Source: Formosa sp. Hel1_33_131
Lineage (GTDB): Bacteria; Bacteroidota; Bacteroidia; Flavobacteriales; Flavobacteriaceae
Assembly: GCF_001735745.1 (NCBI RefSeq)
Contig: NZ_CP017260.1
Coordinates: 2,700,001 to 2,732,000, forward strand
Reading direction: 5' to 3'
Length of the DNA: 32,000 nucleotides
Position numbers and translations under genes: made by a program. Under the pieces are notes generated by a model. The model saw only the letters and a list, made by a program, of their open reading frames with translations, was not told the DNA's origin and searched no databases. Below are positions 6,460-14,687 of this stretch, piece by piece (within the stretch, counting starts at the first letter, position 1; each line of letters begins with the position of its first letter).

Positions 6460-7071
6460 ATGCCTTTTAAAAAATTACATTCTGATATTCGAGAGAAATT
6501 AGAATCTCTAAACATACAAACGCCAACGCCATTTCAGAGCAGCAGCATTCCCATTATTAAAAGTGGTGTGAATGTATATTGCACCGCTCCTAAAGACAGT
6601 GGTAAAACAACCACCCTTGTATTGACTACCTTACAAAAGTTAAAATGTGAGGCTGACGGAAATGCGCCTAGAGCCGTTGTTCTTGTAGAAAACAAGGAAC
6701 GGGCGATGGAATTATACGAAACGTTTTTAGCCTATACAAAATACAATTCTTTACGCGTTTATGTAGGGCATGAACAGCTGCATATAGACATTCAGAAATC
6801 GGAAATATTTGAGGGTACAGACATTCTTATTTCTACTCCCAAAACAATGAATAAGTTGTTCTTATTAAATGGTGTCAGCACTGCACAATTAAAAATAATC
6901 AGTATTGATGATGCGGAATTTCTTTCGCAACACTCCTCCTATTCGGCGATTATGTCGATTTCTCAGAGTATCCAAAAATGTCAATATGTCATTTACTCAG
7001 AAAAAATGACTAAAATGCTTGAGCGTTTTGAATCTTATTTTATGGAACGTTCAAAAATCGTTTCTTTTTAG
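6460..7071 (+). CDS. Stand-alone DEAD-box helicase domain-1-like protein with degenerate motifs
   Basis: 203 aa. It has a Q-motif-like TPFQ, Walker A APKDSGKT, a PTRELA-position KERAMEL, STPKT for TPGR and DDAE for DEAD. No RecA domain 2 is present. Confidence 0.65.
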   Translation: MPFKKLHSDIREKLESLNIQTPTPFQSSSIPIIKSGVNVYCTAPKDSGKTTTLVLTTLQKLKCEADGNAPRAVVLVENKERAMELYETFLAYTKYNSLRVYVGHEQLHIDIQKSEIFEGTDILISTPKTMNKLFLLNGVSTAQLKIISIDDAEFLSQHSSYSAIMSISQSIQKCQYVIYSEKMTKMLERFESYFMERSKIVSF

Positions 7072-7771: not shown

Positions 7772-8953
7772 TTACGCTAACAAATCATATTTGTTACTTG
7801 GAGGAAATAATAAATTTAAACTATTGTCTTTTAATTTAAATAAAGGTCCTTTTTCTGCGCCTCCACCAGTTGGAGTTCTTTTGATTAAATGATCTACTGT
7901 AATTATTCCTTGTTCTAAAAGTAAATCAAATTGTGAGATAATTGGTTTTCTTGTGTGTTCAACTAGTTTATATTGAAAATGTTCTTTGCCTCTTATTTTA
8001 ATACTATCAGCAGCGATCCAAAATGTTTCTTTATGTTTCTCTAATAGTCGTTGATGTAATTTTTCCAGAGTCCATACAACAAAATCACCAACTTCTTTTT
8101 TGTCCGAAGTTTCTATTAAATGGTTTATATCTGAATTAATTTTTAATGAGAGACCTTGTGAGTTGACTACAATAGTAGATAAAGTACAATACAATTTAAA
8201 AGCACTTCCTCTGCTATAACCGAACTCATTTAATATCTCTGTTGAATTTTTAAATTTGCTTAATGTCCAATCTGGTACTTGAGCAAATAAATTCTTCCGA
8301 TTCCCTTTTGAAGATCGATAAGATTTCAGTTCAATTCCTTTGTAATCTGGTAATTTAGAAGAATTAATATCTATTCCCAAGGCTGTTTCTAAAGTACGTC
8401 CAACAGATGTATCAGCATTAACCATTGAAGGAATTGGACCTTTCTTAGCAATTGTTGTTAATAAGCCTAGTAATTCATTCGCAATTACATTTTCATTATA
8501 ATTAATTTCTTGTACTAATTCTTTTAAGGGGTTAGAATTAACACCATTTATTAATTGGCTAACTGGCAGTTGAGTTACATTGATAATGTGAATTACACCA
8601 TCAAAACAAATTAATCCTAGAACATCATTTGGTTGTGTGTGTTTAGATATTTCTGAAAACCATATTCTTGGATCTCCTGTTTTTGTCTTAGGCCTGTATA
8701 ACGAAGTTTTGGATTTTAAAACAGAATTTACATCATAAATTAAAGCATCAATAATTATTTTATGATCAGGACCTTGAAGTTGTAAGCTATAATCGTGAAA
8801 GTTATTAGTTCTTAAATAATTCCTTACAGTTCCGGTTGCATCCATTATAGACTTCTTAAGTCCATTTTCAGTAGGTTCAATTAAAGTTAAGGAGATTGAG
8901 TTTTTAGTTAAAACCTTAAGCTTATCTTCTTCTTGGGGAGTTAATAATCTCAT
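7772..8953 (-). CDS. Putative type II restriction endonuclease: MutH/Sau3AI/MvaI-BcnI-like PD..ExK core in the C-terminal half, unassigned N-terminal domain
   Basis: Residues ~184-212 (GRTLETALGIDINSSKLPDYKGIELKSYR) match the MutH-family pattern G..lE..LG....s..PD...ELK(S/T). The start codon overlaps the methyltransferase stop codon (ATGA). Confidence 0.6.
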   Translation of the reverse strand: MRLLTPQEEDKLKVLTKNSISLTLIEPTENGLKKSIMDATGTVRNYLRTNNFHDYSLQLQGPDHKIIIDALIYDVNSVLKSKTSLYRPKTKTGDPRIWFSEISKHTQPNDVLGLICFDGVIHIINVTQLPVSQLINGVNSNPLKELVQEINYNENVIANELLGLLTTIAKKGPIPSMVNADTSVGRTLETALGIDINSSKLPDYKGIELKSYRSSKGNRKNLFAQVPDWTLSKFKNSTEILNEFGYSRGSAFKLYCTLSTIVVNSQGLSLKINSDINHLIETSDKKEVGDFVVWTLEKLHQRLLEKHKETFWIAADSIKIRGKEHFQYKLVEHTRKPIISQFDLLLEQGIITVDHLIKRTPTGGGAEKGPLFKLKDNSLNLLFPPSNKYDLLA

Positions 8954-11163
8954 TTAATGTGTTTCAAAATTTCAATTGCAACTGCTCTAGCCATTAATGG
9001 AGGCACTGCGTTTCCGACTAATGTATATTGGGGCAGTTCGGTTTTTCTATTATTTCCGCCCGTTGAACGTTTTCCTTGAAAAACGAATGAATCATCAAAT
9101 GATTGTAACCTTGCCATTTCCCTAACAGTTAATGCTCTTGGTGAGTTATAGTGAATGTAATCATCTGGAATAGTCATAACCGTAGGACTTTGATTCTCTG
9201 GTTTTAATACATTGTAATTTCTTTTATTAGACGATAAACCACATTCATTTAATTTATTTTGTGCTTTTTTATAATTTCCTTCTTTTAAAATTATATCAAG
9301 TCGTTTAATTACATCCTCTCCTTGGTTACTTGTTTTATGATTATGAAGTAGGTCATAAACTTTTTCTCCATTATTAAGAGCTAATTCACTTTTTACATAA
9401 AAAGGTTTGGTTGCTTTTTCAAATCGACCGTTTAGCCGACCTCTCTTACTCCATTCTGCAAAAGTTTTCCCTTTAGTTTTTATGAGTTTACCATCAATTG
9501 AACGAGCCTTAATTAGACCTTTCATTTTTTTAGCAGTTACATTATACTGTTTAGAAATATCTACTGACTGATATTGGTGAGCTTCTTGATTATTGCCAAT
9601 AAAATCTAAATCATAAAGCGCTTCGAAAACAGAAACCTTCTCTTCTTCCTTAACAGTAGCAGGAATCTCAGATATGAATTTTTGATCTTTTCTACACCCT
9701 ATAAATAAAACACGCTCTCTATTTTGTGGTACTCCATAATTTGATGAATTTGCTACAAATGGCGCTTCTATTTTATAAAGTCTTATATCACTGATAATTG
9801 TATCTAATTCATTGCTTTGTTCTTTGTCACAATAGGCACGAATCATTGTGAGACAATCATCAATATTTAGGACATATATTTTCAATGCTTGTATTATATC
9901 GTCACAAGATTTCTTAAAGTCTTTTACTACATTTAATCCATCAAATGCTTCTTCGACTTTATTGATTATTTCATTTGAATCAATATCCGTGAGGAATTGA
10001 GTGAAAGAATCTACAAAGAAATCGTTATCAATATTACAAAAATCCTTTTCACGAATAATATCTCGTTTAAGTTTTTCCCATTCTTTACTTCTAGCTAAAA
10101 TATTAAAACCGTGTCTGATCGTGCTAATTCTTTCATCCGTTTTACTCGTTTTGTAGTCAACAATATCTGGAGTTAACTTTCTGAACTTAGCATCAATTGT
10201 TCGTATATAAACTTCTTTCACTTCTTCAATTTTAGAATCCGTAAACTGTTCAATTTCAATTCTTTTAATCAAACAATCTAACAAGAAACCGTTATCTGTA
10301 TTAGTCGTTTTTAAAGATTTAATAAAAGAGGCTAAACGAGGGATTTCTTTAATATCAACAATGGAATTAATTTCTTTTAGAATTAGTTCTTTTATTTTCC
10401 CTTTTTCCTTTGTTAAAATTCCTTTTACATTCTCCATAATAAAGTACTTGGGCTGAAGTACTTTGATTACTCCCAAATAATGAGCAAATAAATCATCCTT
10501 TTTATCAAACTTCTTTCTTTTGCCTGCTAAACTAAAACTCTGACAAGGAGGGCCTCCACAAACTACGTCAACTTTTTTGCCTTTGGTTTTCGAAATTAAA
10601 TTATCCAAAAAATCAGGTTCTGTAATATCTTGACATAAAAAATCCGCATCCAATCCTAATTGATGATTGTATCTTACTATATGAGTTAATTCAGAGTTAT
10701 CATTTATATCATTTGCTACAAGAAAATCAAAGAATTTATTGTTATGCTCTGCTTGTAAAAAACCTTCACTAAAACCGCCCGCACCTGCAAATAAATCAAC
10801 AAACGTAAACGGTTTACCGTATAGAGGGATTTGTTCCCTTACAATGTTAACATTGTGATTCTCTTTGTAAGCTTTTACAAAACCATGTAACTTTGTTTTG
10901 ATTTCATTATTAGTATAACTTTTTTTATAGGAATTGTTTAGTAGTTCATCTGCCCTCTCCTTTAAATAATTCAAATAATGGTTAATTTCAGTAGATCTTT
11001 CTGAGTTTTGTTTTACAGTTTGAGTTTCCTTATCAAAATCTTGCCGTTTTATTTTTTCTCCAGTTGATAATTTAATTTGTTCAGAATTACAATTAATCCT
11101 TAAGTGAATTGGAGAGAATCCTTTTTTATTTGATTTATCGAGATAGAAGTTTATTGTAGCCAT
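8950..11163 (-). CDS. DNA (cytosine-5)-methyltransferase with an N-terminal integrase-type Arm DNA-binding-like domain and a large internal insertion
   Basis: C5-MTase motifs: I FVDLFAGAGGFSEGF (aa 121-135), IV GGPPCQSFS (aa 203-211), VI ENVKG (aa 244-248), VIII QNRER (aa 480-484), IX RALTVREMARLQSF, X GNAVPP. The N-terminus, MATINFYLDKSNKKGFSPIHLRINCNSEQIKLSTGEKIKRQDFDKETQTVK...EINHYLNYLKER, follows the Bacteroidota tyrosine-integrase Arm-domain pattern. Confidence 0.9.
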   Translation of the reverse strand: MATINFYLDKSNKKGFSPIHLRINCNSEQIKLSTGEKIKRQDFDKETQTVKQNSERSTEINHYLNYLKERADELLNNSYKKSYTNNEIKTKLHGFVKAYKENHNVNIVREQIPLYGKPFTFVDLFAGAGGFSEGFLQAEHNNKFFDFLVANDINDNSELTHIVRYNHQLGLDADFLCQDITEPDFLDNLISKTKGKKVDVVCGGPPCQSFSLAGKRKKFDKKDDLFAHYLGVIKVLQPKYFIMENVKGILTKEKGKIKELILKEINSIVDIKEIPRLASFIKSLKTTNTDNGFLLDCLIKRIEIEQFTDSKIEEVKEVYIRTIDAKFRKLTPDIVDYKTSKTDERISTIRHGFNILARSKEWEKLKRDIIREKDFCNIDNDFFVDSFTQFLTDIDSNEIINKVEEAFDGLNVVKDFKKSCDDIIQALKIYVLNIDDCLTMIRAYCDKEQSNELDTIISDIRLYKIEAPFVANSSNYGVPQNRERVLFIGCRKDQKFISEIPATVKEEEKVSVFEALYDLDFIGNNQEAHQYQSVDISKQYNVTAKKMKGLIKARSIDGKLIKTKGKTFAEWSKRGRLNGRFEKATKPFYVKSELALNNGEKVYDLLHNHKTSNQGEDVIKRLDIILKEGNYKKAQNKLNECGLSSNKRNYNVLKPENQSPTVMTIPDDYIHYNSPRALTVREMARLQSFDDSFVFQGKRSTGGNNRKTELPQYTLVGNAVPPLMARAVAIEILKHIK

Positions 11164-11174
11164 ACTTTATATTG

Positions 11175-11210
11175 CGGACGTTTTTACGGACACGGACAAA
11201 TTTACGGACA
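11175..11210. repeat. Four direct CGGAC(A) hexamer repeats (TGTCCG on the gene strand) just upstream of the methyltransferase start
   Basis: Copies start at 11175, 11187, 11193 and 11205, giving 12/6/12-nt spacing. The gene strand reads TGTCCG-taaatt-TGTCCG-TGTCCG-taaaaa-CGTCCG-caatataaagt-ATG. Confidence 0.85.
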
Positions 11211-11333
11211 GCAAGTAATATAACCTACTAAAATTTATAATATTTCCATTTACCCTGTTCAATTCACATCATCACTTTTGCTCAACATCCATAATAAAAA
11301 TTCAAAAAACTCCAAGTTAGAACAGAAATCGTT

Positions 11334-12495: not shown

Positions 12496-13371
12496 ATGCA
12501 TTTAGAAAACCCTTACAGCGATCGTTATGATCTGAAACGATTGGCAATTCACCATCCACAGTTACAAGAACACATTGTTTTAAACCCCTCAGGCGAAGAA
12601 ACGATTGACTTTAGTAATTCAGCCGCGGTCTATGAATTGAATAAAGCCATGCTTTTGGCCGACTTTAAAGTTGAGAAATATGAATTGCCAATGGGCTATC
12701 TCATTCCTCCTGTCCCAGGACGTTTAGAATATTTATTACATATACGTGAGTTTCTTTCAGAACAATTTAATATCGATAAAAACACCAAACTACGAGGGTT
12801 AGACATCGGATCTGGTGCGAATGGCATCTATTGTATTTTGGGATTACAACATTTTAATTGGACCATGGTAGGTGCTGAATGTGATGCCAATTCTGTAGAA
12901 ATTGCAAAGGCTAACATGCAACATACAAAGTCATTAAAAAATAAGATTGAAATTCGACATCAAGAAAATAAAAGTTTCCTTTTTAAGAATATAATTAAAA
13001 CGGATGAGCAATTTGATTTCACCGTTTGCAATCCCCCATTTCACACCTCTAAAGAAGAGGCGTTTAGAGGGTCTCAGAGAAAAATTAACAATTTAGGTCG
13101 TGAATTTGATAAAAAAGAAGTCGCTCTTAATTTTGAAGGTCAAGCCAACGAACTTTGGTGCAATGGTGGCGAAGCCCTTTTTATCAAACGATTGATAAAA
13201 GAAAGTACCGCGTTTAAAAATCAAGTGAAAGTCTTTTCTACACTGGTTTCAAAAACAGATAGCCTCTCTAGTATTGATAAACAGCTTAAAAAAGCTAAAG
13301 CGAATTCTTATGTGTTGCCAATGGATTTGGGCAATAAGAAAAGTCGTATTGTTCTCTGGTGGTTTGATTAG
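12496..13371 (+). CDS. rlmF: 23S rRNA (adenine1618-N6)-methyltransferase RlmF
   Basis: N-terminal NPYSDRYDLKRL...NPSGEETIDFSNSAAVYELNKAML...GYLIPPVPGRLEYLLHI, SAM motif LDIGSGANGIY and catalytic CNPPFH, colinear with E. coli RlmF/YbiN. Confidence 0.85.
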   Translation: MHLENPYSDRYDLKRLAIHHPQLQEHIVLNPSGEETIDFSNSAAVYELNKAMLLADFKVEKYELPMGYLIPPVPGRLEYLLHIREFLSEQFNIDKNTKLRGLDIGSGANGIYCILGLQHFNWTMVGAECDANSVEIAKANMQHTKSLKNKIEIRHQENKSFLFKNIIKTDEQFDFTVCNPPFHTSKEEAFRGSQRKINNLGREFDKKEVALNFEGQANELWCNGGEALFIKRLIKESTAFKNQVKVFSTLVSKTDSLSSIDKQLKKAKANSYVLPMDLGNKKSRIVLWWFD

Positions 13372-14687
13372 GTTTCTAAGACCGTTACCCGTACTTTTTT
13401 CTTTTTGAGGCGTGTATTATTTAATTTCTCTACCAAGTCCTCTGCGATCGACTTAGGCACTGCCACAAACGCACAATCTTGTTTTAACTCAATATTTCCG
13501 AGTTGATCCTTTGTAATATTCCCTTGTTTAAAAAAGAGTCCTGCAATATCCCCTTTTGAAATTTTGTCTTTTCGACCTCCAGAAATAAACAAAGTTTCCC
13601 AAAACTGTGGTTTACGAACCGACTGTTTAGAGATGTTAACGACTTTAGAATTATGAATGTACGCTGGTAAATCTTCAGAGTCTCCTTTCATTATATAAGC
13701 CGTTCCTTTAGAATCGACTCTAGCAGCACGCCCATTTCTGTGAATAAATTCTTCTTTGGCGCGAGGTACTTCGTAATGGATAATAAATTTCAACTCAGGA
13801 ATATCAATACCTCGAGAGGCTAGATCTGTCGCAATGAGAATCTGATTGGTGCCATTTCTAAACTTTATCAAAGAACGTTCTCTTTCTTTTTGTTCCATAC
13901 CTCCTACAAAACAACTGTGGTTGATCTTATTTTTATCTAAAAAACGACTCACGGAATCAACACTGTCTCTTAAATTACAGAATACAATCCCTGTTTGGTT
14001 GCCAAGGTGTCCTACTAAATCCAAAAGCGTTTGAGGTTTATTTTTAGACGGATAGACTACGGTTTTAATCTCCAGTTTAGAAACTACTTTTTCTTTCAAA
14101 TAATTGACAGTGGTGGGTTGATCCAAACGTACAAACCCAGGGATGTTGATACTTTGAGTGGCAGAGGTTAAAATCCGTTTGTTGATATGTGGCAACTGAT
14201 GGATAATTTCTTTCATTTCAGCTTCAAACCCATCTTCAAGCGACTTGTCAAACTCATCTAATATGAGCGTTTTTATGCTCGTTTTAGAAAAACGGTCGTT
14301 GCTAAAATGATCTGCAATTCTACCGGGCGTACCTATTAAAATAGCGGGTACGTGTTTGATTTCAATTTTATCTTTAGACATTGGACGTCCGCCATACACA
14401 GCATTCACTTTAAATCCAGAACCCATACTGCGGACTACTTGTTCAATCTGTATGGCCAGTTCTCTTGAAGGCACAATAATCAAGGCTTGCACCTCTTTAC
14501 TTTCGGGATCAAGTAATTTGATAAGTGGCAATAAAAAAGCCAATGTTTTACCTGTTCCTGTAGGTGATAATAAGATGGTATTGGTTGTTCTATCAATCAC
14601 CGAAATCGCTTCCTCTTGCATTGGATTCAATACATGAATATTTAATTTCGTTAAAATATCTTGTTGTTCTTTAATTGTATTTGCCAT
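13368..14687 (-). CDS. dbpA: DEAD-box RNA helicase with a C-terminal DbpA-type RNA-binding domain; motif II is DEFD
   Basis: Q motif PMQ, motif I SPTGTGKT, PSRELA, TPGR, motif II DEFD, SAT, HRNGRAAR. The C-terminus (ISGGRKDKISKGDIAGLF...VAVP...) matches the DbpA/YxiN RRM-like domain. Confidence 0.8.
   Translation of the reverse strand: MANTIKEQQDILTKLNIHVLNPMQEEAISVIDRTTNTILLSPTGTGKTLAFLLPLIKLLDPESKEVQALIIVPSRELAIQIEQVVRSMGSGFKVNAVYGGRPMSKDKIEIKHVPAILIGTPGRIADHFSNDRFSKTSIKTLILDEFDKSLEDGFEAEMKEIIHQLPHINKRILTSATQSINIPGFVRLDQPTTVNYLKEKVVSKLEIKTVVYPSKNKPQTLLDLVGHLGNQTGIVFCNLRDSVDSVSRFLDKNKINHSCFVGGMEQKERERSLIKFRNGTNQILIATDLASRGIDIPELKFIIHYEVPRAKEEFIHRNGRAARVDSKGTAYIMKGDSEDLPAYIHNSKVVNISKQSVRKPQFWETLFISGGRKDKISKGDIAGLFFKQGNITKDQLGNIELKQDCAFVAVPKSIAEDLVEKLNNTRLKKKKVRVTVLET

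Follow-up and report, generated by a model that had tools for sequence, protein, structure and literature searches.

What does a DNA-binding domain of integrase type do at the front of a DNA methyltransferase, and where on the DNA would it bind? This question is raised by a locus of Formosa sp. Hel1_33_131 within the 32,000-nucleotide stretch analysed here (the window; NZ_CP017260.1, positions 2,700,001 to 2,732,000), in which a C5-cytosine methyltransferase (MTase) gene, M, is followed by a restriction endonuclease gene, R. We favour, with a probability of roughly two in three, the reading that M and R form a two-gene Type II restriction-modification (R-M) cassette, probably directed against CCWGG, in which the MTase represses its own promoter through an arm-type domain bound to direct repeats. 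The array of repeats at the M promoter, whose motif is also written GTCCGTAAA, is the strongest functional clue at this locus, and it was missed by an earlier reading of the same letters (the original prediction).

Integrase arm domains bind direct-repeat arm sites, and the original prediction had recognized the pattern of such a domain at the N-terminus of the M protein. This assignment is borne out by profile searches, by a reciprocal match and by the predicted fold. Arm-DNA-bind_5 (PF17293) matches residues 9-84 with 26.4 bits in the whole protein and 29.1-29.6 bits in the isolated N-terminal domain (N-domain), the gathering cut-off being 22.6 bits. It is the sole family matched by all of 20 diverse homologous N-domains (best E 2.3e-11), reaching 38 bits in a 62%-identical homologue (P0121). 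When a hidden Markov model (HMM) of the MTase N-domains was compared with the 1449 open reading frames (ORFs) of related-locus DNA, a single non-MTase match was obtained (E 6.7e-5). This protein is a true tyrosine integrase, matching both PF17293 (66.8 bits) and Phage_int_SAM_5. In hhalign, the MTase N-domains align with the arm domain of this integrase over 93 columns (90% probability, E 1.5e-6). An AlphaFold2 (AF2) model of residues 1-100 places strands at 3-8, 16-25 and 28-39, followed by helices at 57-76 and 85-102, with a predicted local distance difference test score (pLDDT) of 80-89. Three strands and a helix are the topology of the IntDOT and lambda arm-binding domains, as described by the authors who created PF17293 (bioRxiv 10.1101/542381). 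These results support the placement of residues 1 to about 100 in the integrase arm-binding domain family, with DNA binding as their putative function.

Not every search returned this relationship. A homologue search with the N-domain alone gave no integrases and nothing beyond fragmentary members of the same MTase family. In Foldseek, the AF2 model of the whole protein matched only MTase cores, because the core dominates the model and is poorly modelled (pLDDT 61). The M protein was also considered as a CTnDOT-type tyrosine integrase, and this was rejected since only PF00145 follows the arm domain, with no SAM-like or recombinase domains.

The remainder of the M protein is that of a C5-cytosine MTase, with methyl transfer to C5 as its predicted activity. 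DNA_methylase (PF00145) scores 177.4 bits (cut-off 22), so that both families named in the original prediction stand above their curated cut-offs, and TIGR00675 scores 155.4 bits (cut-off 100.65). Motifs I, IV, VI, VIII, IX and X follow one another in order, at the positions already given in the original prediction, and are invariant across 50 homologues. The protein is identical to AOR29667.1 / WP_069677809.1 of the same strain, and its gene lies on the minus strand, which had previously been left unstated.

The fusion is part of the translated protein. The ORF begins at the earliest possible start codon after the in-frame upstream stop, and the absence of Met between residues 1 and 243 leaves no internal AUG that could give a protein with motifs I-IV; a true start at an internal Met, which had been raised as a danger to the fusion, is thereby ruled out by the sequence. 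Over the first 30 M codons of the related loci, identity is 0.90 at codon positions 1 and 2 and 0.61 at position 3, and this large difference indicates that the N-terminal region is selected as protein. Some database records differ at the start: in P0024, P0076, P0100, P0111 and L006 5953, the MTase is lengthened by 16-23 residues through the operator from an upstream GTG (MSVNLSVSVKTSAKYN-MATINF...), and these 753-760-aa entries probably carry wrong starts. A domain-less relative, P0124, has Gly to Trp changes in invariant motifs (FFAWAGG, WWPPCQ), which suggests a sequencing or recoding artefact of the metagenome record.

Directly 5' of the M ATG, the minus strand reads ctGTCCGTaaatttGTCCGTGTCCGTaaaaacGTCCGCaatataaagtATG. 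A repeat search resolves this DNA into two tandem 18-nt units TGTCCGTAAAnnnGTCCG (11193-11210 and 11175-11192; 83% identity), each of which contains two GTCCG cores 12 nt apart, and three of the five GTCCGT hexamers of the window fall inside a 24-nt part of the array. Relatives of the M protein were sought among 1.84 billion representative proteins, and the array was followed through 80 related loci, taken from one-genome-per-species contigs of many Flavobacteriales genera and of Cytophagales, Saprospiraceae, Bacteroidales and Marinilabiliales. All loci with preserved upstream DNA contain the block TGTCCGTAAATTTGTCCGTGT(A/C)CGTAAAAACGTCCGT, as a rule 8-14 nt from the ATG, and the MATINFYLDK start stands at a constant distance from the operator across loci. 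Where the copy number of repeats changes, it does so by whole units, with one unit in L017 and L048 and an extra 12-nt repeat in L071.

The block is extremely conserved. Over its 37-40 nt, mean pairwise identity among about 80 genomes is 0.88, compared with the 0.90 and 0.61 given above for codon positions 1+2 and 3, and with 0.37 for the next 100 nt upstream. The near-equality with codon positions 1+2 indicates that this non-coding block is under purifying selection as strong as that acting on the protein.

The array also occurs exclusively together with the domain. In 916 kb of related-locus DNA, read on both strands, clusters of at least two GTCCGT copies in a 20-nt span number 79, and every one of them stands fewer than 80 nt upstream of an M gene. 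In a metagenome scan for the exact pattern, at least 81 of 126 matches stand directly before ORFs of MTases with the arm-type domain (Arm-MTases), including some with very diverged N-termini; the remaining matches, mostly single pairs in GC-rich DNA, we take to be chance or unrelated. Homologues that keep the N-domain and homologues that lack it, both of which the original prediction had proposed to look for, were found: many relatives of 608-635 aa align from about query residue 117 to the end, without the N-domain and with the insertion described below. TCCG-type direct repeats immediately precede the ATG in all five diverged domain-bearing lineages (L081, L082, L085, L086 and L087; 47-62% identity), reading TTCCGTAATTTTTTCCGTAAATTA in L081 (47% identical). 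None of the five domain-less lineages (L084, L088-90, L091, L218 and L219), which retain the insertion, has such repeats. In a tree of the MTase core, the proteins with the domain group into what is essentially a single clade, one member being ambiguous, and this is consistent with one main acquisition of the domain plus the operator.

Other sequences near start codons were noted in passing. Among the domain-less relatives, CCTGGAC or CTGGAC occurs near the start in L091 (about 60 nt before the ATG), in L219 (about 10 nt before a GTG) and in L088-L090, in the contexts tgtCCTGGACtt, caCCTGGACac and gtCTGGACac; it may be a recognition site within the promoter, with methylation-dependent control in place of the arm-domain/operator pair. 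A pair GTCCGTAAGTTTGTCCGT lies a few nt upstream of mraZ in GC-richer metagenome contigs (L108, L173, L179, L193 and L195). MraZ binds direct repeats, and this pair is probably an unrelated operator that shares the core by chance. Arrays of GTCCGT/GTCCTT with no nearby Arm-MTase were seen in L114, L128, L137, L143 and L181 (human gut metagenomes) and in L174 and L120, where in part they belong to low-complexity coding sequence (KDKNKDK) and in part they are intergenic.

Promoters and translation signals of Bacteroidota differ from those of model bacteria. A scan for sigma-70 promoters and terminators gave chance-level counts, and its model does not apply to Bacteroidota promoters. In flavobacteria, the sigma-A -7 box TAnnTTTG lies at -12 to -5, and the median 5' untranslated region (5'UTR) is 24 bp (PMC9723704). 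A box of this consensus is predicted within the array; it overlaps core 1 by its first T and core 2 by its last G. The block is otherwise nearly invariant, and the two 'nn' of the box rank among its most variable positions. Relative to the predicted transcription start site (TSS), core 1 would touch the -7 box, core 2 would reach from -5 to +1, and cores 3 and 4 would occupy +2 to +7 and about +14 to +19, respectively. Because the cores lie over the predicted -7 box and +1, their occupancy should block RNA polymerase. An Rfam search of the leader region gave no match and, as the repeats are direct, no RNA hairpin is suggested.

The following sequence of events is proposed. The MTase would have acquired, on a flexible linker, an N-domain homologous to the arm-binding domain of Bacteroidota CTnDOT-type integrases. 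In a naive host, the promoter would be open. As MTase accumulates, several molecules would bind the direct repeats through their arm-type domains, as integrase arm domains do, and the bound MTase would occlude RNA polymerase, resulting in negative feedback on M that would extend to the translationally overlapping R gene where the two are co-transcribed. Autorepression by a fused domain is put forward on the precedent of C5-MTases with repressor domains (SsoII, Ecl18kI and EcoRII). Coordinates of all features are collected in Table 1.

Table 1 Features of the R-M cassette in the window and in the M and R proteins.
Feature	Window position	Strand	Protein position	Details
Conserved cassette (operator/promoter, M, R)	7778..11211	minus		3.45 kb
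Putative operator	11174..11210	minus		Two tandem 18-bp units, four direct GTCCG(T/C) cores
GTCCG(T/C) cores 1-4	11204-11209, 11192-11197, 11186-11191, 11174-11179	minus		Spacing 12, 6, 12 nt
Predicted sigma-A -7 box	11197..11204	minus		TAAATTTG (TAnnTTTG); inferred from consensus
Predicted transcription start	11192	minus		From -7 box position rule (PMC9723704); 5'UTR ~29 nt
M gene (C5-cytosine MTase)	8950..11163	minus		737 aa; stop codon 8950-8952
Arm-type (integrase arm-binding-like) domain of M, putatively DNA-binding	10855..11163	minus	aa 1-103	Basic, pI 9.4
Probable flexible linker of M	10816..10854	minus	aa 104-116	pLDDT <50 in AF2 model
C5-MTase catalytic domain, first part (motifs I, IV, VI)	10402..10815	minus	aa 117-254	Profile and PDB matches
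Helical insertion domain of M	9769..10401	minus	aa 255-465	12 helices; acidic (pI 5.1)
C5-MTase catalytic domain, second part (motif VIII, target-recognition region, IX, X)	8953..9768	minus	aa 466-737	
Motif I of M			aa 123-134	DLFAGAGGFSEG
Motif IV of M			aa 203-211	GGPPCQSFS
Motif VI of M			aa 244-246	ENV
Motif VIII of M			aa 480-484	QNRER
Motif IX of M			aa 681-693	REMARLQSFDDSF
Motif X of M			aa 717-722	GNAVPP
R gene (restriction endonuclease)	7772..8953	minus		393 aa; ATGA (4-nt) overlap with M stop
R N-terminal domain	8462-8953	minus	aa 1-164	Invariant SLYRP..K.GD.R.W

The partner of M has the features of an endonuclease. Residues 165-383 of R match PF15515 MvaI_BcnI with 236.2 bits and R.MvaI (2oa9) in the PDB; residues 1-164 match no family. 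An M gene is paired with an MvaI/BcnI-type R gene in most loci. When the window was compared by blastn with 91 loci, homology stopped at about 7780-7796 and about 11210-11277, and the GC content between these limits is about 30%, compared with 34-37% in the flanks. With similarity confined to it and GC content lowered, the segment behaves as a horizontally distributed cassette. Close relatives were not found on known plasmids or phages. Between 7778 and 11211 the cassette holds only M and R, with no gene for a C protein (a small helix-turn-helix (HTH) controller).

In 622 kb of host flanks (from L001-L080 and the window), no other of the 32 interrupted 5-mer palindromes is avoided as strongly as CCWGG (observed/expected (O/E) 0.65), which is nearly absent from the cassettes themselves (O/E 0.05); the window contains 12 CCWGG sites, none of them between 3360 and 11867. 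GATC, CCGG, CTAG and GGCC are likewise depleted in the host flanks. Site avoidance thus suggests that the R-M cassette is specific for CCWGG.

The surroundings of M vary. In at least 16 loci, the partner of an Arm-MTase and its operator is not of MvaI type; its place is taken by a convergent ORF of 309 aa, which overlaps the stop codon of M (L001 (8207-9136, minus), L003, L008, L010, L011, L012, L017, L019 and L021, and further L023, L025, L110, L126, L138, L145 and L163). This ORF has no Pfam, NCBIfam or PDB match and is presumably an alternative endonuclease of an undescribed family. In L006 (8220-10435), L014, L020, L049 and L066, two extra genes stand between M and R, encoding a 384-aa protein with weak GmrSD_N / DGQHR similarity and a 354-aa protein without a family; they may be a second defence module nested in the R-M operon. 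Beyond the cassette, a 203-aa ORF at window 6460-7071 (plus strand) resembles a DEAD-box helicase (motif I, GSGKT-like) cut down to its N-terminal half. A full-length DEAD-box gene is present at window 13368-14687, and the shorter ORF may be a truncated paralogue.

The catalytic domain of M is interrupted. Motifs VI and VIII are about 235 residues apart, and the PDB relatives of M (3g7u, HaeIII, HhaI and DNMT1) cover residues ~120-260 and ~463-736 but not ~261-462. The helical insertion of about 200 residues that the original prediction had read from this spacing is upheld: it has no Pfam family and no PDB sequence match, and, modelled alone from a 21-sequence alignment, it forms a compact, all-helical domain of 12 helices (pLDDT 91.4, predicted template modelling score (pTM) 0.85). 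Foldseek found no relative of this model in the PDB (best E 0.31, TM score at most 0.25) or in BFVD. Two insertion motifs are near-invariant, Y-x-x-SKTD-x-x-[IV]-x-T-[IV]-RHG and [IV]-DND-x-FV. The insertion is not peculiar to the window protein, as it aligns (about 255-465) across domain-bearing and domain-less relatives and is common to the latter (608-635 aa, 45-51% identity), and several insertion-bearing relatives are also paired with MvaI_BcnI endonucleases of about 390-400 aa. The insertion predates the N-domain fusion and is a feature of a wider MTase subfamily, an uncharacterised one with a confidently predicted fold. Since the insertion is acidic, DNA binding by it is unlikely, and we suggest with low confidence that it is a protein-protein or oligomerisation module.

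Several points weigh against autorepression through the arm-type domain. Binding, repression and the TSS are all inferred here from sequence. A -33 promoter element is not evident, and the promoter call rests on one motif. No solved structure matches the N-domain in a PDB sequence search with the N-domain profile, and the PF17293 score of the window protein is just ~4-7 bits over the cut-off. Co-variation between domain and operator is weak, with L081 and L087 as the sole hints; the operator varies even less than the protein domain, which leaves little to be seen. Nor are the related loci independent of one another, since a single cassette has spread among them horizontally, and it is the synonymous-site control that addresses this kinship. 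Conservation beside the ATG could also partly reflect translation-initiation signals. Finally, simple autorepression of M and then R does not itself explain how methylation precedes restriction in a new host.

Of the other explanations, the one that survives best shares the binding step: the domain binds the repeats, and the outcome is activation, a timing switch by which the M:R ratio is set, allosteric inhibition of methylation (as for M.SsoII) or local tethering. The same co-occurrence of domain and repeats applies to it, the M and R genes overlap, so that timing during establishment needs a further mechanism, and PMC6100179 reports that the regulatory site of M.SsoII inhibits the methylation activity of that enzyme. 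However, cores that overlap the predicted -7 box and +1 have the classic geometry of repression, and at least 16 loci combine the same M and operator with an unrelated gene in convergent orientation, which argues that the conserved target is M's own promoter. We therefore regard a different outcome of binding as unlikely, while giving it the first place among the alternatives. Placed a little lower in likelihood is a joint role for both unusual parts of the protein, in which the arm domain was exapted as a stand-alone transcription-factor module, together with its operator the portable 5' edge of a cassette now spread across Bacteroidota, and in which, at its boldest, the insertion oligomerises MTases on the four-site array. 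Array occupancy would then couple R-M expression to MTase concentration or to engagement with unmethylated sites; alternatively, the array could also serve mobility of the cassette.

A further explanation separates the two elements. The block would be a promoter or 5'UTR element recognized by host factors, or would act as RNA, and the N-domain would serve some other purpose, be it DNA affinity or processivity without specificity, targeting to other sites, or the binding of a partner. The block does contain a good -7 box, the binding of the domain to it is a prediction, and A-rich leaders matter for translation in Bacteroidota according to PMC6847099. But a generic promoter needs no four GC-rich direct cores in DNA of 30% GC, the array is missing from the five domain-less lineages and from the rest of the 916 kb, and, for an RNA element, the direct repeats form no hairpin and have no Rfam match. 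This explanation is rather improbable, and falls below both of the preceding ones.

Very improbable is the possibility that the repeats are arm-type mobility sites for an integrase acting in trans, which the MTase domain would imitate or compete with. Between loci, homology stops at about 11210, where the outer edge of the array is also the upstream edge of the cassette; the cassette occurs in many unrelated genomic contexts, and its domain family comes from integrases. Yet no second array is found at the other end of the cassette or elsewhere in the 916 kb, no integrase lies in the cassette or consistently beside it, and no relatives were found on known plasmids or phages. Scarcely credible is an annotation artefact, with the N-terminal region belonging to another small gene or to a leader that is not translated, and the MTase starting later. 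Gene callers do disagree on the start, and some entries (758-760 aa) read through the operator, but the frame is single and uninterrupted (734-739 aa) in more than 100 clusters, and the lack of Met in residues 1-243, the protein-level conservation and the fixed start-operator distance all oppose it. Translation from an internal start, a small gene separate from M, a structured RNA and paired recombination sites were each considered and rejected.

Control of R-M genes decides whether a cassette establishes in a new host without killing it, and is known to be exerted by C proteins, by methylation-sensitive promoters and by MTases fused to HTH repressors. To our knowledge, the arm-binding domain has been described so far only as the recombination-directing module of tyrosine integrases. 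If autorepression through the arm-type domain is true, there would be a further route of R-M control, with an integrase arm-binding domain as a repressor module that reads tandem direct repeats. This would apparently be the first described use of the family outside recombinases, as far as the literature was found, and would extend the principle of the 'dual-function MTase' to Bacteroidota. The original prediction had held that this domain was undescribed on an R-M MTase. That stands insofar as a literature search found no paper linking PF17293 or arm domains to methyltransferases, but the architecture itself is common (118 of the 120 best 90%-identity clusters; 124 species genomes) and is annotated automatically by Pfam, and databases label these proteins only 'DNA cytosine methyltransferase'. 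The literature search found nothing relevant on the methylome of Formosa sp. Hel1_33_131. The system is abundant in marine Flavobacteriia, and its presence in cultured strains (Formosa sp. Hel1_33_131, Allomuricauda ruestringensis DSM 13258 and Kordia antarctica) makes it directly testable. For genetic tools in Bacteroidota, the 37-nt operator and the 100-aa domain could provide an orthogonal pair of repressor and operator of compact size.

Comparison with known systems places each part of the cassette. Like M.HhaI, M.HaeIII and 3g7u, which are its best PDB matches, the M protein has all ten-motif landmarks in order, but unlike these compact C5-MTases it carries the helical insertion and the N-terminal arm-type domain. 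In R, the layout of an N-terminal domain (1-164) followed by a catalytic domain (165-393) mirrors that of UbaLAI, a Type IIE enzyme cutting CC/WGG, in which residues 1-164 form an EcoRII-N-like domain and residues 165-405 an MvaI-like one (PMC5766183), and the avoidance of CCWGG fits this likeness. The profile of the R N-domain did not match UbaLAI-N (5o63) or EcoRII-N at E up to 10, and R as a demonstrable UbaLAI orthologue was dropped for this reason. In the MvaI system, M.MvaI makes N4-methylcytosine (PMC3001055), whereas the partner of R here is a C5-MTase. The N-domain of M resembles the arm domain of CTnDOT/NBU1-type integrases in profile homology, predicted fold, N-terminal position, basic character and proximity to short direct repeats. 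Unlike in those integrases, it is followed by an MTase and not by SAM-like core-binding and catalytic domains, and its putative sites lie in a promoter and do not flank a recombination core.

The closest functional parallel is expected among MTases that control their own genes. In M.SsoII, M.Ecl18kI and M.EcoRII, the DNA-binding region is a helix-turn-helix, and the regulatory site of the SsoII type is palindromic and lies between divergent M and R genes. Like these enzymes, the window protein is a C5-MTase of a Type II system for CCNGG/CCWGG, with its specificity predicted here, and it has an N-terminal extension on a linker and no separate C protein. In the SsoII type, the extension represses M by binding to a regulatory site in the promoter of the enzyme's own gene; for the present system, binding and repression alike are predicted. 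Unlike the SsoII type, M of the window has a beta-sheet-plus-helix domain of PF17293 and no HTH match, its putative site consists of direct repeats in tandem, and M overlaps an R gene of the same direction or, in other loci, has a convergent gene in place of R. Fusion of a C5-MTase to a domain that represses its own promoter is documented for SsoII, Ecl18kI and EcoRII (PMC12707154 section 11; PMC3978073; PMC3695355). By analogy, the Arm-MTase system most likely works as these do, although outside their group.

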